Origin: a virus | Virus record (IMG/VR): IMGVR_UViG_3300029286_000012 | Length of the DNA: 64,000 bases | Reading direction: 5' to 3' (one strand) | In this document: positions 1,308-61,749 of the stretch, in pieces | Numbering within the stretch: position 1 is the first letter of the stretch | Layout of the letters: each line of letters starts with the position of its first letter | Position numbers and translations under genes: made by a program | Notes under the pieces: model-generated | The model's input: the letters and a program-made list of their open reading frames with translations, nothing else | Told to the model about the DNA's origin: nothing | The model's database searches: none

Positions 1308-1540
1308 TAATTGAACATTATGACTATGCTGTCGGATGGGAAAACACCAAACCCGGTTGGTATGAATGCACAGTTCGTGCCAAACGTTTTGACAAAATTA
1401 ATGAAATAATTAAATGGTTAGAAACTAATATAGGCAAATATGAAAGGCATTGTAGATGGGGTGTAACTGATGATGACACTATTAGCTTCAAGTTTAGATA
1501 TGAGAGAGATTACATTTTATTCACATTGAGGTGGAGTTGA
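1304..1540 (+). CDS. Small hypothetical protein, 'F-x-LRW' family
   Basis: ATGA overlap at 1304; ends FKFRYERDYILFTLRWS. Confidence 0.7.
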   Translation: MIIEHYDYAVGWENTKPGWYECTVRAKRFDKINEIIKWLETNIGKYERHCRWGVTDDDTISFKFRYERDYILFTLRWS

Positions 1541-1806
1541 TGGTATCAATACCTCACATACAGGACTACGATGACGATGATCCAAATATAAACCAACGTA
1601 GAAATCGTTGGAACTATTGGGAAGCATTGAAGAAAGTGCGTAAAGAATATATGGAACAAAACCGTGAGTTTGACGCATATGATTTTGAAGATTATCTTAT
1701 AGGAAAGTATGGTGTAAAGATGAATATAGTCAATGGCAACATAACAGATGGTTATGAGATTGTTGACGAAAAGAAGTACCTAATATTTTTATTAAAATTC
1801 CAATGA
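1540..1806 (+). CDS. Small hypothetical protein, divergent member of same family
   Basis: TGATG overlap at 1538-1542; ends DEKKYLIFLLKFQ. Confidence 0.65.
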   Translation: MVSIPHIQDYDDDDPNINQRRNRWNYWEALKKVRKEYMEQNREFDAYDFEDYLIGKYGVKMNIVNGNITDGYEIVDEKKYLIFLLKFQ

Positions 1807-2153
1807 ACAATACACCCTTTCCCATAACAGCTTTACAAGATAATAAATTTATGTTATCATGGCCTAAATGGCAGAACATTAAACACTTTCACACAAAGAA
1901 AAAACTATTGGATGTGTTGTTTGACTATATAGGCAGTGAAGAAGTAGGTATTAGCATATCAATTGTAAAAGACGAATTAGATATTATGTGGATTACATGG
2001 AACACTTGGGCACAAGATGTTAACGGTGACTATGCTACCTACTTAGAAGATATGTATGAGATTAAAGGTGTAGCATTCAATAGCGAGACAGAAGCATTGA
2101 AGCTACAAGATTACTTAGAGAAGAAATATATTTGGAAAACATTACAGGCATAA
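1803..2153 (+). CDS. Hypothetical protein
   Basis: ATGA overlap, 116 aa. Confidence 0.6.
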   Translation: MNNTPFPITALQDNKFMLSWPKWQNIKHFHTKKKLLDVLFDYIGSEEVGISISIVKDELDIMWITWNTWAQDVNGDYATYLEDMYEIKGVAFNSETEALKLQDYLEKKYIWKTLQA

Positions 2154-8750: not shown

Positions 8751-9905
8751 ATGAATCTATCCGAATCATTAGCTTATCTTAGAAATAAAGTAGATAGTAT
8801 TAACACTATCATTACAGAAGATAAAGGTCACTTGGATCACCCTGAAGATTTAATTTTCTTACGTGGTACACAAGGTGCCAATCAAGCTATACAAGCAATG
8901 GCTGATACTGTAGCTAAGCCTGAAAAGGTAACAATTAAATGGGACGGATATCCTGCATTAATTTTTGGACGTAATAGTAACGGGAAGTTTACTATATTAG
9001 ACAAGCATATGTTCAACAAGAAAGATGGTACTGGTCGTCAAGTATTCAGCCCAGAGCAGTTTGCACAATATGATATGGCACGTGGTGTAAATCGTTCAGA
9101 CTTACATCAATTAATTGCACAAATATGGCCTGGACTATCAAAAGCAGATAAAAGTAAGGGCTATTATTGGGGTGATTTATTGTTTAGTAAACCATTAGTA
9201 GAAAAGAACGGGCTATACACATTCAAAGCAAATCCTAAAGGTATTACATATACAGTAGATGCAAACAGTGATTTAGGTAAATTTTTAGATGGTAAAAATT
9301 CAGGGATAGTTGTGCATGGATATATTCCACCGGATGCATTAACAACCGATCAATCAACACCGTTAGATGGTACTATTGGCAATCTTAAGAATAATAGTGA
9401 TGTAGCTATATTACCTGCTAAAATGCCGATCACACCTAATTTGAAATTAAATTCAGCATTGTTTAAAAAAGCACAAGCATCTATACAAAAATATGGTCAG
9501 GCAGTAGAACAGTTAATGAGTACTGCACCTCAGGCAAGAAATACGTTTAATCAGTTATTCACTACTTACATTAATAAGCGTATTGTAGCCGGAGACTTGA
9601 ACGATTTATATGCAGGATTTATTGAATATGTTCAATCAAGACCAATGACTGATAAAATGCGTGAGAAAATAAGTCAACATTTAGAAGCCAATAAAGCAGG
9701 ATTGGTAGGTGCATTTACTATCTGGGTAGCTATATACAACCTCAAAATGAACATTGTAGACCAGCTTAATAAAGCCGCAAAAACAGCCCCTGTAAAAGGT
9801 TATTTAGATGATGGTACACAAACTCAAGAGGGTTTCGTGAGTCACGGTCTTAAATTTGTGGATAGAATGGGCTTTAGTCGTCAGAATTTGGCTGGAAGAC
9901 AATAG
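8751..9905 (+). CDS. DUF6267-like protein, ligase-type nucleotidyltransferase motif
   Basis: HLDHPED, TIKWDGYPA (KxDG), EGFV, LKFVDR. Confidence 0.65.
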   Translation: MNLSESLAYLRNKVDSINTIITEDKGHLDHPEDLIFLRGTQGANQAIQAMADTVAKPEKVTIKWDGYPALIFGRNSNGKFTILDKHMFNKKDGTGRQVFSPEQFAQYDMARGVNRSDLHQLIAQIWPGLSKADKSKGYYWGDLLFSKPLVEKNGLYTFKANPKGITYTVDANSDLGKFLDGKNSGIVVHGYIPPDALTTDQSTPLDGTIGNLKNNSDVAILPAKMPITPNLKLNSALFKKAQASIQKYGQAVEQLMSTAPQARNTFNQLFTTYINKRIVAGDLNDLYAGFIEYVQSRPMTDKMREKISQHLEANKAGLVGAFTIWVAIYNLKMNIVDQLNKAAKTAPVKGYLDDGTQTQEGFVSHGLKFVDRMGFSRQNLAGRQ

Positions 9906-20874: not shown

Positions 20875-22251
20875 TTAGATGACGATAGAATAATCCCCTT
20901 GGTTGTACCAACCTTCATATGACTTCATCCAAACGTTGTTGATATAATCAAATCTATACTGCAAATCAGTAGTAAGATTGGTTACGTATTCTACTGTAGT
21001 AGCAGATTGACTATCAAATGATACAAACCATTCACCTGATGTTGCGTCAAACTCAACAATGTCATTTGCATTTGCAATCAATGCTCCCCAAGCAATAGTA
21101 GTATTACCCGGACTACCCACATCTTCTACAATAAGATATCTACGACCGTTGATTGGTCCTGGCAGTCCTGCGTTTGGTCCAGTGACTAGTGGGTTAACCA
21201 CGCTGTCTACAGGATCCAATGTGTTTTGTGGCAGGGTGTCAGTATCAATATCATATATTAACAATCTATCATCTGTTGGGTCAGGAACAATAGTACCAAC
21301 AATGTCGGTAGTCATAAATGGATTTTGTAACCATATTTGACTGATACCGGGACGTAATGTACCGTATACGTTTAACAATGCGGTCCAATATAAACTTGTA
21401 TCTGGTGGAGGTGGATATTCTAAACTCTCATTACTTGGATAGAATGCTTCATCTGCAGGTAGTAATTGTAATCTATTACCAATCAGTAACAACTTATATC
21501 CATATGGTGTAATCTTTTGTCGAGTACCTAACAACAAATCATCATCTTGAATATCTTGTAATGCTTGACCTTTAAAGATACTAGCAATAACTTTTTCGAT
21601 AACGCCCATCTTTTTAAGTTTAGCGGCATTACTTAGCCATATAGGCATATAAAACTTCCAACTTAATACATCAATGGGATTACCTGTACCTTGTGGGATA
21701 CTACGGCTGGTAAATGTTATACCATCTTGGTAAACAACACTTAAACTAGTCCAATCAATAAAGTTATCAGTACTTTGTATCTCTAATGAAGGATTGAATA
21801 ATGTTCCCAATTGCTCTATTAGTTCTAATTTTTGTTGGTAGTTAGTAGTCCAGAAGTCAACATTAATACGTAATGTATAGGGTACAGGCATCAATCGTTC
21901 AATCGTAAATGCTTGACCTTGAACTTGCTCATATTGTTGTGTTTCAGTATTATAACTACGTTGTCTAACCTGCATCTTGTCAATGAATGTAGGATCTTGT
22001 GTACGTTTTTGGTCGTACTCTAATGCACTGATATAATATGTAATCAATGGCGCACTTGGTAAGTTACTTGCACTATTGTTAGCAATGATAGTACTTGCTT
22101 GTCTACTACTATCACCATACATAATAGGTACACGAACAAATATTTCATTACCTGCAGGGTCTTTACCTTTAGTAACTTCCCAGTTACTGAATATTTTTGC
22201 AAACTGTATTAAAAATCTGCGTATCTGATTGTCATAGAAAAAGGCTGCCAT
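20875..22251 (-). CDS. Tail terminator / sheath stabilizer (gp15-like) with C-terminal extension
   Basis: FFYDNQIRR, VPIMYG, MPVPY, IEQL...FNP. Confidence 0.8.
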   Translation of the reverse strand: MAAFFYDNQIRRFLIQFAKIFSNWEVTKGKDPAGNEIFVRVPIMYGDSSRQASTIIANNSASNLPSAPLITYYISALEYDQKRTQDPTFIDKMQVRQRSYNTETQQYEQVQGQAFTIERLMPVPYTLRINVDFWTTNYQQKLELIEQLGTLFNPSLEIQSTDNFIDWTSLSVVYQDGITFTSRSIPQGTGNPIDVLSWKFYMPIWLSNAAKLKKMGVIEKVIASIFKGQALQDIQDDDLLLGTRQKITPYGYKLLLIGNRLQLLPADEAFYPSNESLEYPPPPDTSLYWTALLNVYGTLRPGISQIWLQNPFMTTDIVGTIVPDPTDDRLLIYDIDTDTLPQNTLDPVDSVVNPLVTGPNAGLPGPINGRRYLIVEDVGSPGNTTIAWGALIANANDIVEFDATSGEWFVSFDSQSATTVEYVTNLTTDLQYRFDYINNVWMKSYEGWYNQGDYSIVI

Positions 22252-25287: not shown

Positions 25288-26085
25288 ATGACTATATCTG
25301 CAACAGCAAACATTCTTTCTACACCAACTGGTTTAACACTAGATGAGTTGAAACAAGCATTATTCAGTAATCTACGTTATAGATTGGGTGATGGCATTAT
25401 TGACCTTGAGTTAGATCCTCAACATTACGAAGCGGCATACAACTACGCAATAAAAGTATATCGTCAACGAGCGCAAAATGCTACGGCAGAGTCATACACA
25501 CTAATGACAGTTGTAAAAAACGTGGACACTTACACATTGCCACAAGAGTTTATCAATGTTCGTTGTATCTATCGTAGAACAGTTGGATTAGAGACTGGAC
25601 CGGGAGCAAGCAGTTTTGATCCATTCAGTTCAGCTATATTAAACACTTATCTATTAAACTATAACTATGCAGGTGGTATGGCAACATATGACTTTTATGC
25701 TGGTTATGTAGAACTAGCCGCACGTATGTTTGGTGGATATGTAATCTATACATTCGATCCAGTTACAAAAGTAATACGTATTGTTCGTGATCCAAAAGGT
25801 AGTGGTGAGCGTGTTCTTATTTGGGCTGACGTACAAAGACCAGAAGAAGTGTTACTACAAGATCCGGGTGCTGGTGTATGGATTGGTGACTTCATTTTAG
25901 CTAACTTAAAACTAATCATTGGTGAGGCACGTGAGAAGTTTGGTACTATCGCAGGTCCAGGCGGCGGCACAACATTAAACGGTACAGCTATGAAAGCTGA
26001 AGGCAAAGCCGCAATGGAACAACTATACGATGAACTAAAACGTTATGTAGATTACAGTCAGCCATTGACTTGGGTACAAGGTTAA
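25288..26085 (+). CDS. Neck protein (gp13-like)
   Basis: RLGDGIIDLELD, GEAREKF, PGGGTTLNG. Confidence 0.85.
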   Translation: MTISATANILSTPTGLTLDELKQALFSNLRYRLGDGIIDLELDPQHYEAAYNYAIKVYRQRAQNATAESYTLMTVVKNVDTYTLPQEFINVRCIYRRTVGLETGPGASSFDPFSSAILNTYLLNYNYAGGMATYDFYAGYVELAARMFGGYVIYTFDPVTKVIRIVRDPKGSGERVLIWADVQRPEEVLLQDPGAGVWIGDFILANLKLIIGEAREKFGTIAGPGGGTTLNGTAMKAEGKAAMEQLYDELKRYVDYSQPLTWVQG

Positions 26086-26103: not shown

Positions 26104-26661
26104 ATGATGCGTGAATTTATTACTTTACTTGAAGATAAGAGTAAACCCCAAGACATAGAAATCATTCCACTAAACTTTACTGAAGGTGAACTTGCACCTG
26201 TACTTAGTAAAGATACAATAGAACTTCACTATGATAAATTAGCCAATGGTTATGCTGAACGTTATAATAAAGGCGAGGGTGATAAAGATTTTAACTATGC
26301 AGGTGCATTCTTACATAATACATTGTTTCCTCAGTTCCGCGAAGTTAGAAATAAAAACAATCCAAATGGCCCTATTATGGGATTTATCAACAAACACTAC
26401 GGTTCATATGATAATATGAAAGAACAGTTTGAAACTGAATTTATGAAGTTAGAAGGATCTGGTTGGCTATACCTAGCATATGATGGTAAGATTAAAACAA
26501 TTAAAAACCATGAAGTACGCAATGATATATTGTTATTAGTTGATAGGTGGGAACATGCTTGGATACTAGATTATGGTAGTGATAAGAAAAAGTATTTGAA
26601 AGAACAATGGAAGATTATCAATTGGAACGTAATCAATACTCGTTGGGGTAAGAGTCTATGA
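26104..26661 (+). CDS. sod: Fe/Mn superoxide dismutase-like protein
   Basis: ELHY, FLHN, GSGW, DRWEHAW (metal ligands H,H,D,H present). Confidence 0.85.
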   Translation: MMREFITLLEDKSKPQDIEIIPLNFTEGELAPVLSKDTIELHYDKLANGYAERYNKGEGDKDFNYAGAFLHNTLFPQFREVRNKNNPNGPIMGFINKHYGSYDNMKEQFETEFMKLEGSGWLYLAYDGKIKTIKNHEVRNDILLLVDRWEHAWILDYGSDKKKYLKEQWKIINWNVINTRWGKSL

Positions 26662-27167
26662 GAGCCAATGAGTTTATTGTAGAAGGTGTGGCGGAAGGCT
26701 CAGAACAAAAATATCTATGGCATGGTTCAAGACAAAAGATTCCTATGTTAGAACCACGCCAATCAGTTGATACAGGTGGTGCCGCAGGTAGCAATCAAAA
26801 TGCTATCTATGCTACCAGTGATCCTAAAGTTGCTATCGCAGTTGGTGGGTTAACTACTCCCGATTCAGATACCGCAATGTTTCCTAACGATCCACAGATG
26901 GTTTTGTTTAGTGGCAAGATTAGAAAAGGAGAAAATGTGTATCTACACAAACTACCTTTTTATAGTCTAGATGGTAAACCGCAGTTTGTTCAGGGTGCCC
27001 ATGACAGGGAATTTTATTCAATACCTGGAGTAAAAGGTATCAAGCCTACAGAAATAAAAGCAGTTCCGGTAGACAAATATCTTAATCTAATCAGGAAGGC
27101 AACTCCTGCTGATTTGGAATTGCGTAAAAAGAATATGAAAGAGCAAGGTGTGGCGGAAGATAATTAA
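26658..27167 (+). CDS. Putative ADP-ribosyltransferase-fold protein flanked by GVAE repeats
   Basis: LWHGS...IYATSD...EFYS (H-Y-E-like); MRANEFIVE N-terminus. Confidence 0.5.
   Translation: MRANEFIVEGVAEGSEQKYLWHGSRQKIPMLEPRQSVDTGGAAGSNQNAIYATSDPKVAIAVGGLTTPDSDTAMFPNDPQMVLFSGKIRKGENVYLHKLPFYSLDGKPQFVQGAHDREFYSIPGVKGIKPTEIKAVPVDKYLNLIRKATPADLELRKKNMKEQGVAEDN
26683..27159 (+). repeat. 15-bp direct repeat AAGGTGTGGCGGAAG (26683-26697 / 27145-27159)
   Basis: Identical copies 462 bp apart, same frame, encode G-V-A-E. Confidence 0.9.
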
Positions 27168-27226
27168 CCTAAACAGTTTACTTTATAACTCTCCTGTAGT
27201 ACAATATGTATTACAGGAGTTACCAT

Positions 27227-27859
27227 ATGATTATTGGAGTTACAGGATTAATTGGGTCAGGTAAAGATACAATTGCTGACTATCTTTGCACATTTCACGG
27301 GTTTAAGCGTGTTAGTTTTGCGGCTAGTTTAAAAGACGCAGTAGCAAGTGTCTTTGGTTGGAATAGAGAATACTTAGAAGGTTCAACTAAAACTAGTCGT
27401 GCTTGGCGTGAGCAACGTGATGAATGGTGGAGTAATCGTTTAGGTATGGAAATCACCCCACGATGGGTATTACAATATTGGGGAACAGAAGTCTGTCGTA
27501 ATAACTTTCATACTGATATCTGGGTGGCCAGCGTAGAAAACAAACTACGTCAGACTAATGATAACATTGTTATTACTGATTGTAGATTTGTCAATGAAGT
27601 TAAATCTATCAAAAGTGTCGGTGGCACTACTATGCGTGTGAGCAGGGGTGAACGCCCAATTTGGTATAGTGCCGCAGTTGATTATAACAATGAACCTGAA
27701 GGTAGCGAACAAAAACTAAAAGCTATGGTAGAGTTAGGTAACTATGCAGTTCACGCTAGTGAGTATAGTAGCATTGGTTTATTGTATGACTATTACATTG
27801 ATAACAATAGTACCATTGATGAGTTACACAAGCAAGTGAACTCAGTGGTCAACTTCTAA
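27227..27859 (+). CDS. Deoxynucleoside monophosphate kinase (gp1-like)
   Basis: GLIGSGKDT P-loop, FAASLK, TPRWVLQYWGTE, ITDCRF.NE, HASE. Confidence 0.9.
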   Translation: MIIGVTGLIGSGKDTIADYLCTFHGFKRVSFAASLKDAVASVFGWNREYLEGSTKTSRAWREQRDEWWSNRLGMEITPRWVLQYWGTEVCRNNFHTDIWVASVENKLRQTNDNIVITDCRFVNEVKSIKSVGGTTMRVSRGERPIWYSAAVDYNNEPEGSEQKLKAMVELGNYAVHASEYSSIGLLYDYYIDNNSTIDELHKQVNSVVNF

Positions 27860-28189
27860 GTCACCTCGACGCCAAGTTATTTCTTTACGCTTAACCACCT
27901 CAATACAACATAAGCAGACCGTTCGTAAATTAGTAAGAGCAATATTCTCTAAACTACCATCAATATGATATACTGTCATTTGAGTTGGGAACAAACTTTT
28001 AAAGCCACATAAGTCACACGTGGCTTTTTTCTTATAGCCACTTTTAGTCCAGTTTGCTTTTCTAGGCTTTAACTTCTTTTTCTTACGACCGCACTCATCG
28101 CACCCACTGCGATAGTGTGTAATACCCTCACGGATGTAATTCACTGCACAGTGATTTTTTCCGCAACTCTTACATATAGGTCTTAGCAT
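27842..28189 (-). CDS. Zn-binding HNH-like protein
   Basis: CKSC, CDEC, CDLC, HIDG...NL...CLCC. Confidence 0.7.
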   Translation of the reverse strand: MLRPICKSCGKNHCAVNYIREGITHYRSGCDECGRKKKKLKPRKANWTKSGYKKKATCDLCGFKSLFPTQMTVYHIDGSLENIALTNLRTVCLCCIEVVKRKEITWRRGDLEVDH

Positions 28190-28304: not shown

Positions 28305-31300
28305 ATGGCATTAACATCTCCAGGCGTAGAAGTAACGATTACAGACGAAAGTCAATACTTACCGGCCGCAACAGGTTCAGTTCCGCTAGTTCTATTAGCA
28401 ACAGCACAAAATAAAGCAAACGCTAGCGGTACAGGAGTAGCAGTAGCTACTACGGCAGCTAACGCAAATAAATTATATCAGGTAACAAGTCAACGTGATT
28501 TAGTAAACTTATATGGTACACCTTTCTTCTATACAACGACAAATGGTACACCAATTCAAGGTTATGAATTAAATGAATACGGTTTGTTAGCGGCTTACTC
28601 TTTACTAGGAGTTACTAATCGTTGCTATGTACTACGTTGCGATATTGACCTAGCAAGTTTAGTTGGTCAAACTGGTCGCCCAACTGGTGCCCCAGCAGAT
28701 GGTACATATTGGTTGGACAGCACTACAAGTACTTGGGGTATCTATGAATTTAATGCAACAACCGGTCAGTTTGCACTACAATCCCCGATTGTTATCACTG
28801 ATAGTACTGACTTGTCTGGTGGTGTTCCTTTAGCGAGCATTGGTGCTATTGGTGATTATGCAGTTAATGCAATGCAAATAACAACTGATTCAACAGATGC
28901 AGAACGAACATATTATTATAAAACAACAGATAACGTGTGGGTTATATTAGGTAGTAGTGATTGGAAAAATGATACCCCTGCAGTTACATCAACTGTTTCT
29001 AATCCTACAATTTCGGCAGGCGGAACACTTGTTATTAATATGAGTGGTTTGTTCTCTGCTACTATTACCATTTCATCAGGTAATACCGTATCTACTATTG
29101 CAACCGCAATTAATAATCTAGGATGGACATACTTAAGTGCAGGAGTTAGAAGTGGTAAGTTATGTTTGTTTACTAGTCAACGTCTATCAGTTAGTGTTGG
29201 TACATCAAACGCTTATTTAGAAATTAGTGGGACAGGTTCATTCTCTGCATTAGGTATTAGTGCAGGAACGTACTATACTCCAATATTGACATACGGTACA
29301 AGTGCTCAAATGCCATTATGGACAAGCAGTCAATCACAGCCTCGTCCAACAGGTAGTGTTTGGCTTAAGGTAGGAGCAGCCGGTAATGGATTAGCACCTG
29401 TTATATCAAGATACAGTACTGCAACAGCATCATGGATTGCAAAAAATGTAACACTTGCTACTTCTGATTGGTCTGTGACTGCTGGGTTAGATGCAACAGG
29501 TGGACAAGCTATTCCTGCAGGAAGTATTTATGGTCAATATAATTACAATAATACCGGATCTACATCACCCTTATACTTCTGGGAAAGAGTTGCAACTGGC
29601 CCTACAGTAATAACAGGTAGTAATACAACTCCTGACTTCACAGCAGGTCCATATTATATGGATGTGTATGTTAGTGTTCCAGGAAGCAGTTCGTTAAGTA
29701 CAGCATATCAATTTACTCTTGCTGATAATACTGATGCTACTGATTTTGTAACAGCTTGGTACGCCGCTGGCATTCCATACACAACAGCAACAGTAACAAC
29801 AGAAGGTTCTATTCAGTTGACACATACTGAAGGTGGTGAAATTGTTATGGATGATACAGTAGATTCATCATTCGTTTCAACTGGAGTATCTAATGGATTA
29901 ATCACAGAAGCTGGCTTTATTATAGGTACAACATCTGGCGTTAAGTATGGTCCAACTGAATTTATAAGTTTAACTGGTATAGCACAAACTTCTACTAGTG
30001 GAAGTGGTTCAGCCGCAACATTCCAAGTACAAGCACTATACGGAGTTTATATTCTAAACAGTAGCGGTGTAACTGCAGGAGGAAGTGGATATGCAGTAGG
30101 AGATACAATTACAATTGCTGGTACAGTATTTGGTGGTGCAACACCCGCTAACGATTTAGTTGTTGAAGTAGCATCAATTTCCGGTGGAGGTGGAACTGGT
30201 CCTGTGACAGCAGTAACATATGTATCAGGCGCCCCTGTTGCACAATATAGAACTCAATTAAGTAACTGGGTTGAGTTTACATATACCGCTAACGAAGGTG
30301 CCCCGGTAACTGAACCTGCTAATAATACTAACTGGTTCTGGTCTGTAGTTGACCAAGTTGATATTATGGTTCAAAAAGGTGGTGCATGGATTGGTTATAA
30401 GAATACCAATTATGACACAACTGGTGCACCAGCTTCATCCGGTGCAAATACAACTGATCCAAATGGTCCTATCATTAGTGCTACTGCACCTACAACACAA
30501 AGTGATGGCACTGCACTAGTATATGGTGACTTATGGCTTGATACAAGTGATTTAGAATTATATCCTGTAATCAGTCGTTGGCAAGCAGTCAACGGTGAAG
30601 ATATGTGGGTATTAATCAATAATACTGACCAAACAAGTTCAACCGGAGTCTTATTCCAAGATGCACGTTGGGCAACAAATGGTAACACAAGTATTACCGA
30701 TGATCCAATTCCAACAATAGTTAGTTTATTATCAAGTAACTACTTAGATTTAGATGCTCCTAATCCAACACTATATCCACAGGGTATGTTGTTATTCAAC
30801 ACACGCCGTTCAGGTTATAATGTTAAACAATATCGTAGTAACTACCTTACACCAGCTAACTTCCCAGATGAAGGTAGCTATCCAACTGAAACAGCGGCTT
30901 GGGTTACAGTAAGTGGTAACACTGCAAATGGTGCTCCTTATATGGGACGTGCGGCACAACGTGCTATGGTTGTTCAAGCATTGCGTTCAGCAATTGATAC
31001 AAACACAGATATACGTGATGAAGATAATTACTTCAACTTGATGGCTACTCCTAATTATCCAGAACTACAACCTAACATGGTTGTATTGAATGCGGATCGT
31101 GGTGAGACAGGTTACATTATCGGTGATACTCCTTTAGGATTATCTGATAGTGCAACTGATATTCAAGCTTGGGCTAACAATGACGCAGGTGCTACATCAA
31201 CTGGTGAAACTGGTTTAGTTACACGTAATACATACTTGGGTCTATTCTATCCAAGTGGAATTACAAATGACTTGTCAGGTAACGAAGTTGTTGTTCCGGC

Positions 31301-31886
31301 ATCACATATGATGTTACGCACATTCTTACGTAATGACACAGTAGCTTTTCCGTGGTTAGCGGCAGCCGGTACTCGTCGTGGTAATATTGACAATGCATTA
31401 AACATTGGTTACTTGGATCGTACGACCGGTGAATTTGTAGCAATCAAGACACGCTTAGGTATTCGTGATGTATTGTATATCAATCAAATCAATCCATTAG
31501 TATTCTTTACTGGTGTCGGCTTGTTGAATTATGGTAACAAGAATAGCTTCAATTCACAAAGTGCATTAGACAGAACTAACGTTGCACGATTAGTTAACTA
31601 TATTCGCCGTCAACTAACATTGGCAGCTAGACCGTTCGTGTTCGAACCTAATGACACGTTAACACGTAATAGTATTGCTGGTGTTATTCAAACATTGATG
31701 GTTGATCTAGTTGCTAAACGCGGTATCTATGATTATCTCGTTCAGTGCGATGATAGTAATAATACACCGGCAAGAATAGATAGAAACGAATTATGGGTAG
31801 ACGTTGCGATTGAGCCAGTAAAAGCGGCTGAGTTCATCTACATACCGGTTCGTGTTCTAAACACAGGTGAAATATCAGGTGTATAA
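28305..31886 (+). CDS. Tail sheath protein (gp18-like)
   Basis: SPGVEV N-terminus; PWLAAAG.RRG, FVFEPND, CDDSNNT, PVKAAEFIYI. Confidence 0.95.
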   Translation: MALTSPGVEVTITDESQYLPAATGSVPLVLLATAQNKANASGTGVAVATTAANANKLYQVTSQRDLVNLYGTPFFYTTTNGTPIQGYELNEYGLLAAYSLLGVTNRCYVLRCDIDLASLVGQTGRPTGAPADGTYWLDSTTSTWGIYEFNATTGQFALQSPIVITDSTDLSGGVPLASIGAIGDYAVNAMQITTDSTDAERTYYYKTTDNVWVILGSSDWKNDTPAVTSTVSNPTISAGGTLVINMSGLFSATITISSGNTVSTIATAINNLGWTYLSAGVRSGKLCLFTSQRLSVSVGTSNAYLEISGTGSFSALGISAGTYYTPILTYGTSAQMPLWTSSQSQPRPTGSVWLKVGAAGNGLAPVISRYSTATASWIAKNVTLATSDWSVTAGLDATGGQAIPAGSIYGQYNYNNTGSTSPLYFWERVATGPTVITGSNTTPDFTAGPYYMDVYVSVPGSSSLSTAYQFTLADNTDATDFVTAWYAAGIPYTTATVTTEGSIQLTHTEGGEIVMDDTVDSSFVSTGVSNGLITEAGFIIGTTSGVKYGPTEFISLTGIAQTSTSGSGSAATFQVQALYGVYILNSSGVTAGGSGYAVGDTITIAGTVFGGATPANDLVVEVASISGGGGTGPVTAVTYVSGAPVAQYRTQLSNWVEFTYTANEGAPVTEPANNTNWFWSVVDQVDIMVQKGGAWIGYKNTNYDTTGAPASSGANTTDPNGPIISATAPTTQSDGTALVYGDLWLDTSDLELYPVISRWQAVNGEDMWVLINNTDQTSSTGVLFQDARWATNGNTSITDDPIPTIVSLLSSNYLDLDAPNPTLYPQGMLLFNTRRSGYNVKQYRSNYLTPANFPDEGSYPTETAAWVTVSGNTANGAPYMGRAAQRAMVVQALRSAIDTNTDIRDEDNYFNLMATPNYPELQPNMVVLNADRGETGYIIGDTPLGLSDSATDIQAWANNDAGATSTGETGLVTRNTYLGLFYPSGITNDLSGNEVVVPASHMMLRTFLRNDTVAFPWLAAAGTRRGNIDNALNIGYLDRTTGEFVAIKTRLGIRDVLYINQINPLVFFTGVGLLNYGNKNSFNSQSALDRTNVARLVNYIRRQLTLAARPFVFEPNDTLTRNSIAGVIQTLMVDLVAKRGIYDYLVQCDDSNNTPARIDRNELWVDVAIEPVKAAEFIYIPVRVLNTGEISGV

Positions 31887-60183: not shown

Positions 60184-61749
60184 ATGAGAACTATTGTCAT
60201 TATGCCGGGAGGCTTTCATCCGTTTCACGCAGGACACGCCGCATTATATAAGAGTGCAGTAAAAGCATTTAATAATGCTGATGTGTATGTAGCCGCTACT
60301 AATGACACAAAAACAAGACCATTCCCTTTTGCTATTAAAGAGAAGTTAGCAAAATTAGCCGGTGTAGCTGATAAGCACTTTGTGCAAGTTAAGAGTCCAT
60401 TCAAGGCAGAAGAAATCACACAACATTATAACCCAGATGAAGATGTATTAATCTTTGTTCGTAGTGAAAAAGATAAGAACGAACAACCCAAGCCAGGTGG
60501 TACAAAGAAAGATGGTAGTCCAGCTTACTTTCAACCTTGGACTGGTAAGAACTTACAGCCATTTAATAAACACGCATATATTGCTTACTTACCAACAGTA
60601 GAGTTTGGTCCTGGCATTACAAGTGCAAGTGAAATTCGTGCGGCATGGCCCACATTGAATGATAAACGCAAGACCGCAATGGTTATGAGTTTATATCCTG
60701 TAACACAAAAGAATCCTAAGCTTGCCGCTAATGTTGTTAAGATGTTAGATATGGGCATGGGTAACGAATTAGCAGAAGGATCATTAAACGAATTTGTCCC
60801 ACCCAGTAGTGACGATGGCGGCGGAGATAGTAGAAGTCGTAGAATAAGAAAATTATTAGAAATTGCTATACAAGTAGCAAAGCAAAAAAATGTTGATGAA
60901 TTAGGTATGATTCATGGTATGAATATGATAGCAGGTGATGAATTTTTCAATACAACAGTTGAAGGTATATTATCGGACATAACAGATAAAGAATATATGT
61001 TTGTGCTACAAAGTGCTTATAAAACAGTAAAGCAAGGTTTGGCAGAAGCAAAGAAAAAAAGAAAAAAGAAAAGTAAAAATCGTAGTCTTGGAAGATACTT
61101 CTTTCCGGGATATAGTTACTACGGTGGTGGTAGTGAATCAGGTGAGGGTGGAGGCGACGGTGGAGGAGGAGAAAGCATCAATCATAATATGACTGAAGGT
61201 CCTTTTGTACAACGTATTATGCATCCTAAGAAAGTTAGTATCTATTTAAGATTAGGTAAAGGTTCCAAGTTAGTTGCAACTGATATACCTTATGAAATAT
61301 TAGATAGCTATGTAAAGAAAGTTATTCAGAAATATCCACAGTTTAAACCTACTGATTTCTCATTCAAATCATCTGACAAAGTAACTGAAAATTTGGGTAT
61401 ACCTTATCCTACTACCTATGAACAAGAGAACAACAAGTTCAAACGTAGAGGTCCAATGCGTATAACTGCTATGACTGAGTTTGCTACACCTGGTAGTGAT
61501 GATAGAGAACCGGACGAGGAAGAAATATTGCGTCAATTAGCCGCACAATGGTGGAATGGTTCAATACAACAAATGAAGAAAGCCCAACAAACATTACAAG
61601 CAATGGGTTGGGAGATTGGTCAAGATGAATCCGATGATGACGATGCCGGTGTATTTGTTATACGAATAGGTGATGAGAACGGTGATAGCTATATTGCTTT
61701 CCCCCATAGTGAATTAGGTTTAAATGAGGATTACCTAAACGAAGAATAA
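60184..61749 (+). CDS. HIGH-motif nucleotidyltransferase (cytidylyltransferase-like) with modular C-terminal extension
   Basis: PGGFHPFHAGH, SASEIR; unrelated segments separated by (L/V/M)-x-E. Confidence 0.75.
   Translation: MRTIVIMPGGFHPFHAGHAALYKSAVKAFNNADVYVAATNDTKTRPFPFAIKEKLAKLAGVADKHFVQVKSPFKAEEITQHYNPDEDVLIFVRSEKDKNEQPKPGGTKKDGSPAYFQPWTGKNLQPFNKHAYIAYLPTVEFGPGITSASEIRAAWPTLNDKRKTAMVMSLYPVTQKNPKLAANVVKMLDMGMGNELAEGSLNEFVPPSSDDGGGDSRSRRIRKLLEIAIQVAKQKNVDELGMIHGMNMIAGDEFFNTTVEGILSDITDKEYMFVLQSAYKTVKQGLAEAKKKRKKKSKNRSLGRYFFPGYSYYGGGSESGEGGGDGGGGESINHNMTEGPFVQRIMHPKKVSIYLRLGKGSKLVATDIPYEILDSYVKKVIQKYPQFKPTDFSFKSSDKVTENLGIPYPTTYEQENNKFKRRGPMRITAMTEFATPGSDDREPDEEEILRQLAAQWWNGSIQQMKKAQQTLQAMGWEIGQDESDDDDAGVFVIRIGDENGDSYIAFPHSELGLNEDYLNEE

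Follow-up and report, generated by a model that had tools for sequence, protein, structure and literature searches.

We examined a short gene in IMGVR_UViG_3300029286_000012, a virus record from IMG/VR. (By "the window" we mean the whole stretch of DNA that was analyzed, which is 64 kb or 64,000 nucleotides long.) The open reading frame (ORF) at 26658..27167 (+) encodes 169 amino acids and reads MRANEFIVEGVAEGSEQKYLWHGS...KNMKEQGVAEDN, followed by a stop codon. We propose that its product is cargo of the phage head, similar to the internal proteins of phage T4, and that it combines a targeting leader, an effector with an ADP-ribosyltransferase (ART) fold, and joints of the form (Q)GVAE/G. (The slash marks the boundary.) The gene would be the smallest form of a family of polyproteins. 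We hold this reading with moderate confidence.

The protein consists of a leader (MRANEFIVE), GVAE, a core of 149 amino acids, QGVAE, and finally Asp-Asn and the stop codon. Similarly short ends follow the last joint in other relatives (Ser-Thr-stop in L009 and Ser-stop in P0007). Both GVAE segments of the window's protein are encoded by the same 15-mer, AAGGTGTGGCGGAAG; the two exact copies are in one frame and are 462 bp apart (Table 1). The only other match to this 15-mer in the window, allowing up to 3 mismatches, is at 61034-61048 (AAGGTTTGGCAGAAG, encoding KQGLAE). The codons of the repeat are unusual for the window, which has a G+C content of 36.7%. In 47 long frames on the forward strand, GTG accounts for 7.9% of valine codons and GCG for 6.9% of alanine codons, so we would expect just 0.0026 (0.26%) of GVAE segments to be encoded by GGT GTG GCG GAA. 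The initial annotation had described the layout of the ORF, the two identical in-frame 15-mers with their spacing, and their odd valine and alanine codons, and all of these hold on the window's sequence.

The joint is a boundary between modules

In IMG/VR, 38 loci encode the domain, and some of these are in near-complete contigs of ~345-354 kb. Across the 38 loci, the core of about 150 amino acids is embedded in open frames of up to ~2,500 amino acids. The other parts of these polyproteins are unrelated to each other and are separated by (K/E/Q)QGVAE(G/A/E). The neighbors of the core vary: there are about 15 different modules upstream of it and about 12 different modules downstream. We split the polyproteins at the joint and clustered the pieces, which yielded 67 module clusters, and modules other than the core also reappear in new orders. 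The modules that Pfam can name are ParB_N, GNAT, cytidine deaminase, cytidylyltransferase-like, Pol-beta nucleotidyltransferase, and ASCH. Since the relatives have up to about a dozen modules per polyprotein and the window's ORF has one, we regard this ORF as a minimal form within a polyvalent family.

Proteins with the ART-like module are widely distributed. When we searched 1.8 billion cluster representatives (50% identity) with a profile (E <= 1e-3), we found 351 that have the core, and in over 100 of them, which are 300-1600 amino acids long, it is at differing positions. On the other hand, we found no match to the ORF or to the polyprotein of L012 in GenBank phages (using tblastn), and no match to the ORF in Pfam or PHROGs.

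Many polyproteins share a basic module as their last unit, at the C-terminus (ENFADGKNPQDKGDSKRH...HWMANMKSG(R/K)xKK). (Examples are L001 6480-6648, the C-termini of L035 and L036, and P0055.) It may be a tail for DNA binding or for retention, like the basic internal proteins of T4.

Close relatives gain, lose, or replace modules exactly at the joint. First, the polyprotein of L012 is that of L009 plus one ParB-like module, which is bounded by identical copies of CAAGGTGTGGCGGAAGGCAA. Second, the window can be compared to locus L056. The adaptor proteins encoded just ahead of the variable site are 96.6% identical, and the DNA homology is confined to the 3' end of the adaptor gene, to 26658-26707 (the leader and joint 1), and to the sequence from 27135 onward, which spans joint 2, Asp-Asn-stop, and the downstream DNA. 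Where the window has the ART module between the joints, the cargo of L056 is 360 residues long and unrelated.

We then surveyed this site more broadly. With the adaptor protein as the probe, we found 499 relatives and fetched 80 loci, 74 of which contain both the adaptor gene and the dNMP kinase gene that flank the site. Most of these syntenic loci (44/74) are empty: the TAA of the adaptor gene is followed directly by CCTAAAC..., just as the TAA of the ORF is in the window. Another 21 have a gene with a T4-like leader and differing cargo (GNAT-containing, ParB-like, another ART-like, or unknown modules). The remainder have other genes (a 278-amino-acid HNH-like ORF or a GDSL-like ORF; 8/74) or the gene similar to superoxide dismutase (SOD) alone (1/74). 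The initial annotation had predicted filled and empty alleles, and we found empty, filled, and differently filled ones, with breakpoints at both repeats. It had also predicted that precise excision would leave a leader-only stub (MRANEFIVEGVAEDN and a stop codon), and this part failed: the stub is absent from the 74 syntenic loci, and empty sites lack the whole gene.

The HNH-like ORF, whose C-terminus reads HLDHIYSI...NLRLIPKIEN, is at the adaptor/kinase junction in L057-L059 and L076-L077 (~5837-6670 in L057). The GDSL/SGNH-like ORF, of about 200 amino acids, is at this junction in L055, L117, and L118. Because these other ORFs are found there too, the site is a general insertion hotspot.

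A second site in the window has a degenerate joint, AGCAAGGTTTGGCAGAAG, inside the multi-module gene at 60184..61749. The first module of this gene is cytidylyltransferase-like, and its boundaries are ELAE/G, KQGLAE/A (61031-61048), and KVTE/N. Residues 4-171 of its product match one place in L014 and residues 173-289 match another, so 61031-61048 is indeed a module boundary, as had been proposed; more generally, the expectation that the repeat would lie at domain borders is borne out across the 38 related loci. In the protein P0009, the C-terminal module of this gene (LGIPYPTTYEQ..., after KVTE/N) immediately follows the ART module. Also, in many relatives, the ART module is in a polyprotein cluster, beside homologs of genes 60184 and 61806, so modules move between the two loci.

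The DNA of the joint is conserved at silent positions

The DNA of the joint is more uniform than the protein needs, even across junctions that share neither flank. The core of the joint, GGTGTGGCGGAA, is fixed at silent positions. Among 77 unique in-frame GVAE sites, glycine is encoded by GGT in 75, valine by GTG in 66, alanine by GCG in 70, and glutamate by GAA in 65. (The background use in these genes is 15% for GTG and 6% for GCG.) To obtain independent sites, we merged sites wherever either flank was shared. Of the resulting 37 groups, 30 have GTG and 33 have GCG.

The initial annotation had suggested counting the repeat in relatives. In 340 kb of dereplicated loci, GGTGTGGCGGAA has 59 exact copies and 31 copies with one mismatch, all of them on the coding strand, and every one of the exact 12-mers reads GVAE in frame (59/59). 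A reversed control has 0 exact copies in the same 340 kb. Five large relatives have 3-5 exact copies each, on one strand per genome; most copies are within a few kb, with a few outliers. So, by both counts, the core of the 15-mer is enriched in relatives and locked to one strand and one frame.

Protein conservation does not account for this uniformity. In every divergence bin, the codons of the joint are more alike (0.70-0.89) than the codons for conserved glycine, valine, and alanine in the domain (0.51-0.67). The leader, which is as conserved as the joint, served as an internal control, and its codons vary normally at silent sites (GAA 18 and GAG 15, TTT 23 and TTC 10, in 33 distinct contexts). 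Finally, the variants of the joint (GLAE, GVVE, DVAE, SVAE, and GMAE) are mostly 1-2 base changes away from the canonical core, which suggests decay from a common DNA sequence.

The cargo probably has an ADP-ribosyltransferase fold

The cargo module is likely to have an ART fold of the H-Y-E type. In a structural model from AlphaFold2 (AF2; pLDDT 82.9), the leader and the tail are disordered, and H22, Y51, and E118 are on predicted strands (19-24, 51-53, and 118-121). These three residues are invariant in 20 aligned sequences, down to 45% identity. The top matches of the model in Foldseek are Arr and Tpt1 (9iaf/2hw2; probability 0.96/0.90; E 0.05). With VIA-align, ART-fold chains make up about 40 of the 50 best rows, at Z of 4.2-7.9; these include KptA (9ld3; 7.9), pertussis S1 (6.5), diphtheria toxin (6.3), and Arr (6.0). 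The H-Y-E fold had been suggested from the ORF's sequence, and the AF2 model, both structure comparisons, and the invariant His, Tyr, and Glu all agree with it.

Thus, the best structural matches to the modeled module are Arr, Tpt1/KptA, and other H-Y-[EDQ] ART-fold enzymes. Like them, the module is compact (about 150 amino acids); its His is in strand 1 (WHGS), its Tyr is in the core strand that follows (IYATS), and its Glu comes later. It differs from Arr, Tpt1, and KptA in that similarity to them is undetectable at the sequence level. The ORF has no match at E <= 1 in Pfam, including curated ART families such as ART-PolyVal (PF18760), and a profile of the domain has no match among PDB sequences. 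Distant stand-alone homologs of the module touch the uncharacterized family DUF6886, below the threshold.

Candidate ART-type effectors are repeatedly hosted at the adaptor/kinase site. At this site, L056 (2209-2763) has a DUF6886-like module, which is ART-like (26.5 bits, with a cut-off of 27). L063 (2613-2975) has a tagged protein of 121 amino acids that contains ILWHGTS and has a weak match to ART-PolyVal (E 0.0055). When compared to the domain profile with hhalign, the second module of L056 has a probability of 13% and the cargo of L063 has 69%, both of which are weak.

A leader and a protease similar to those of T4

The leader fits the pattern M-[KR]-x-x-(x)-E-F-I-x-E, as does the capsid targeting sequence (CTS) of T4, MKTYQEFIAE; the likeness is one of sequence only. 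The CTS is removed by a cut after the Glu (PMC8442874, PMC9026906, PMC5694885), which agrees with the T4 background in the initial annotation. In relatives, the leader is found in 33 distinct contexts, and several genes per genome are tagged. A DNA pattern for the leader has 3 occurrences in each of two relatives' genomes and 0 in controls. It does not occur in G001, whose leaders must be variants.

Two near-complete relatives (G001 and G002) encode a prohead protease of the Peptidase_S77 family that is 37% identical to gp21 of T4. In L039, a gp21-like protease is encoded at 1366-2004 (minus strand). G001 and G002 also encode a gp23-type capsid protein (36% identity to gp23). Near-complete relatives have a coiled-coil scaffold protein with six [LI]AE motifs, and the relatives' capsid protein has a single phi-A-E (RKMLAE/N), immediately before the conserved core. 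Because near-complete relatives encode a gp21-type protease, a gp23-type capsid, and scaffold proteins, we consider the phage to be an uncultured, T4-related jumbo phage (~350 kb). The closest capsid proteins from cultured phages are those of Vibrio phage 2.275.O (70%) and Pseudomonas phage PA5oct (68%).

The boundaries themselves are consistent with a cut after hydrophobic-x-Glu. The cargo protein contains such motifs (IVE and VAE). At non-canonical boundaries upstream of the domain, V/L/I/M/F-x-E is kept in 51/53 representatives. As a rough estimate, about a quarter of these would have hydrophobic-x-Glu by chance. This suggests a constraint on the protein that is separate from the constraint on the DNA.

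The position of the gene points to late expression that is linked to the virion. The cargo gene is in a late structural block and is coupled to the adaptor gene. In relatives, the two are joined as TAA-ATG, and in the window, the cargo gene's start and the stop of the SOD-like gene ahead of it share the sequence ATGA. By analogy to T4, we infer that the GVAE joint is a cut site for the prohead protease and that the cargo would be packaged in the head and ejected into the host.

How the joint might work

If the proposed reading is correct, then the leader would direct the protein to the prohead's scaffolding core. A gp21-type protease would cut after the Glu of each hydrophobic-x-Glu joint, which would remove the leader and free the modules. 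The modules would exit alongside the DNA to act in the host at an early stage; in this case, by ADP-ribosylation of some target. At the DNA level, the identical ~18 nucleotides (AG CAA GGT GTG GCG GAA GG) would be a point for short-homology crossover that preserves the frame. We favor short-homology crossover because the joint is the only sequence that is common to unrelated modules and because the breakpoints are on the joint. We also propose that modules with canonical joints spread, which would keep the DNA of the joint uniform.

More tentatively, the ~18-nucleotide joint might have evolved as a frame-preserving recombination signal, perhaps recognized by an enzyme, that re-sorts libraries of injected effectors, with the same six residues guiding the head protease. 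We consider this stronger version somewhat less likely than not. Under it, the joint would give protein domains an equivalent of integron cassettes or of exon shuffling.

Several points weigh against these proposals. Cleavage, packaging, and ejection are argued purely by analogy. The 64-kb window has no gene for the protease, the capsid, or the scaffold, so we took the protease and the capsid from near-complete relatives. The closest cultured phages, PA5oct and Vibrio phage 2.275.O, have no occurrence of the leader's DNA pattern. Many related polyproteins are untagged at the start, such as MRTIVIMPGGFHPF in gene 60184 of the window. The structural scores for the ART fold are moderate (Z <= 7.9; Foldseek E 0.05), with no sequence-profile match to ART families. 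The terminal joint would free just a dipeptide, so it has no obvious use for the protease; it looks more like a relic of recombination or a landing pad. As for recombination, 18 nucleotides is short for efficient homologous recombination, and the long homology in the flanks (the adaptor and kinase genes) can swap alleles without the joints. Since the flanks suffice for replacing alleles, the joints would be needed only for the first assembly of the cargo. The uniformity of the joints could reflect identity by descent and rapid turnover instead of selection, and the repeat could be a copy that is carried along with the modules rather than a substrate for recombination.

Alternative explanations

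The leading alternative is that these are intact, multi-domain polyvalent proteins, and that QGVAEG is an inherited linker or a scar that the prohead protease does not cut. The set of domains (ParB_N, GNAT, deaminase, nucleotidyltransferase, and ART-like) matches that of the polyvalent proteins in Iyer et al. 2017 (PMC5512222), where processing by an internal metallopeptidase is proposed. L035 has an HExxH stretch (identified by eye) and few canonical joints. Many members lack the leader, and terminal joints with 1-2 residues after them resemble scars. But Pfam shows no peptidase module in the nine polyproteins that were scanned, the leader is close to the CTS of T4, and the phages encode a homolog of gp21. 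Furthermore, hydrophobic-x-Glu is kept in 51/53 representatives where the DNA core decays, which fits the rule for gp21. Overall, we think that intact polyvalent proteins are unlikely.

Another explanation for the unusually uniform core is that it is the target of a dedicated site-specific recombinase or of a homing-type nuclease (by gene conversion). There are HNH-like genes in or beside the variable site: one at 27842-28189 (-) in the window and the 278-amino-acid ORFs in L057-59 and L076-77. However, these HNH-like ORFs have no match in Pfam and are at only one of the two loci, we found no recombinase or nuclease with a consistent link to the polyprotein loci, and the core of the joint lacks dyad symmetry. 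A dedicated enzyme therefore seems improbable to us. We also considered a Chi-like hotspot of the host as a possible role for the joint.

We give slightly less credence to the idea that the silent sites are conserved for the mRNA or translation (a pause, a contact like that of Shine-Dalgarno sequences, or a start at the in-frame GTG) or because the copies form a DNA-binding array. GTG and GCG are rare codons in the window, AAGGTG resembles part of a Shine-Dalgarno sequence, and the copies form clusters, always on a single strand. Yet GGT and GAA are the commonest codons for glycine and glutamate, so the joint is not simply made of rare codons. We reject an internal translation start because no start codon is at the proper distance after AAGGTG. 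We also reject a fixed array like pac or parS: the number of copies ranges from 0 to 8 among loci or genomes, many relatives have none at this site, and the spacing of the joints shifts between close relatives. Nor would any of these roles explain the homology breakpoints at the joints.

Finally, although two copies of a 15-mer would be weak evidence by themselves (about 0.7 chance matches are expected in the window at up to 3 mismatches), a chance repeat in an ordinary gene is next to impossible and is rejected, given exact copies at both borders and about 60 more exact in-frame copies in relatives versus 0 in the reversed control.

Comparison to known systems

Among the known systems closest to the one that we propose are the internal proteins of T4. 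IPI, IPII, IPIII, and Alt also have a short N-terminal tag followed by diverse non-structural cargo. The cargo of Alt is an ADP-ribosyltransferase, and the cargo here is ART-like. Both the genes for T4's internal proteins and the cargo genes here differ strongly among related phages. Both are associated with a gp21-family protease and a gp23-type capsid (here, in relatives), with a putative cut after hydrophobic-x-Glu. There are also differences. Each cargo gene of T4 has one cargo, while genes in this family have up to a dozen modules and a repeated internal site. Unlike in the internal proteins of T4, the repeated joint is fixed at silent positions in the DNA, and what we know of this system comes from sequence analysis. 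Also, the ADP-ribosyltransferase of Alt is of the R-S-E type, whereas the predicted fold here is of the H-Y-E type.

Polyvalent proteins have many unrelated conflict-type domains per polypeptide, are encoded near virion genes, are extensively shuffled, and presumably reach the host along with the DNA, according to Iyer et al. 2017 (PMC5512222). The passages of that paper on these proteins mention no common linker, prohead-protease site, or DNA-level junction. In contrast, the junction here is a single conserved unit of 6 residues and ~18 nucleotides, and the window's gene has a single module.

Short conserved repeats are already known to mark variable regions in phages. In PeSL systems, such repeats mark insertions, deletions, and replacements in hyperplastic regions; recombination between the repeats was proposed, and mini-circles were shown (Arbiol et al. 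2010, PMC2839356; Comeau et al. 2014, PMC4122927). Similarly, the insertions, deletions, and replacements among relatives of the window are bounded by the joint. But PeSLs are intergenic units of a promoter and a stem-loop/terminator, are several times longer than the joint, and shuffle genes. The joint is coding, is ~18 nucleotides long without a dyad, keeps the frame, shuffles protein domains, and seems to be a protease site as well. Tail-fiber genes of T4-type phages swap segments at conserved in-frame motifs, as summarized in a passage of PMC3157838 that cites Tetart et al. 1998. We searched the literature for QGVAE, GVAEG, and QGVAEG and found only unrelated papers, mainly about synuclein, with no description of this joint system.

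If our proposal is correct, then one short sequence lets a phage gain anti-host enzymes while keeping the frame and the head-loading tag intact, and each enzyme would be released separately within the capsid. This would explain the large and fast-changing sets of injected effectors in giant phages. It would also provide a catalog of candidate early-acting effectors with clean natural borders, and it would suggest a rule for designing T4-type heads that are loaded with several proteins.

Genomic setting of the cargo gene

The order of the late structural block is a virion protein, the head-tail adaptor, the Fe/Mn-SOD-like gene, the cargo ORF, and dNMP kinase (Table 1). Downstream of dNMP kinase are an HNH-like ORF on the opposite strand and then a very long sheath-like protein of 1193 amino acids (28305-31886).

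Table 1. Features of the cargo gene, its neighbors, and the second site in the window
Feature	Coordinates	Strand	Description
Head-tail adaptor gene	25288..26085	+	Left anchor of the variable site; PHROG 211
Fe/Mn superoxide-dismutase-like gene	26104..26661	+	Optional insert; Pfam Sod_Fe_C 2.8e-23
Cargo gene	26658..27167	+	Leader, joint 1, predicted ART-fold module, joint 2, and 2-residue stub
Leader MRANEFIVE	26658..26684	+	Similar to the T4 capsid targeting sequence; predicted to be disordered (AF2 pLDDT <50, residues 1-15)
Joint 1, 15-mer AAGGTGTGGCGGAAG	26683..26697	+	GVAE is 26685-26696
Predicted ART-fold module, about residues 14-162	26697..27144	+	Alignment, AF2 model, and structure matches
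Joint 2, identical 15-mer	27145..27159	+	GVAE is 27147-27158; preceded by CAA (Gln)
Terminal stub, Asp-Asn-stop	27159..27167	+	L056 has the same end (...QGVAEDN and stop) and downstream DNA
dNMP kinase gene	27227..27859	+	Right anchor; PHROG 139 4e-50; likely start is ATG 27227, behind AGGAG
Degenerate joint AGCAAGGTTTGGCAGAAG (KQGLAE)	61031..61048	+	Inside the multi-module gene 60184..61749

The SOD-like gene is present in only 2 of the 74 syntenic loci (L045 and L047), and the match to its N-terminal domain falls just under the cut-off. In L029-L031, a copy that is 61% identical is directly ahead of a tagged polyprotein.

The adaptor gene ends with GTA CAA GGT TAA (26077-26085; Val-Gln-Gly-stop), in the window as well as in relatives. 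Its last six coding bases, CAAGGT, are also the first six of the canonical joint, CAAGGTGTGGCGGAA, which could be due to chance.

Just upstream of the start of dNMP kinase is a perfect 13-bp hairpin (27191-27219; CTCCTGTAGTACA ATA TGTATTACAGGAG; -18.6 kcal/mol, z -4.2), with the AGGAG ribosome-binding site within its 3' arm. Relatives have the hairpin conserved at both empty and filled sites. It may serve as a regulatory element, as a terminator, or as a PeSL-like unit.

The HNH-like ORF between the dNMP kinase and sheath genes (27842-28189, minus strand) encodes 115 amino acids, is rich in cysteine, and has an HNH-like stretch (YHIDGS...N...N). L009 and L012 have versions with 96% identity. 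This ORF may encode a free-standing homing nuclease, which would drive gene conversion at the adjoining variable site.

Elsewhere in the window, 20875-22251 (-) encodes a second homolog of the T4 gp15-like sheath stabilizer, and 8751-9905 encodes a DUF6267 protein (3.4e-40). In L007, L011, L018, L021, and L033, polyproteins with or without the tag begin with a module that is distantly homologous to this DUF6267 protein (22-30% identity).

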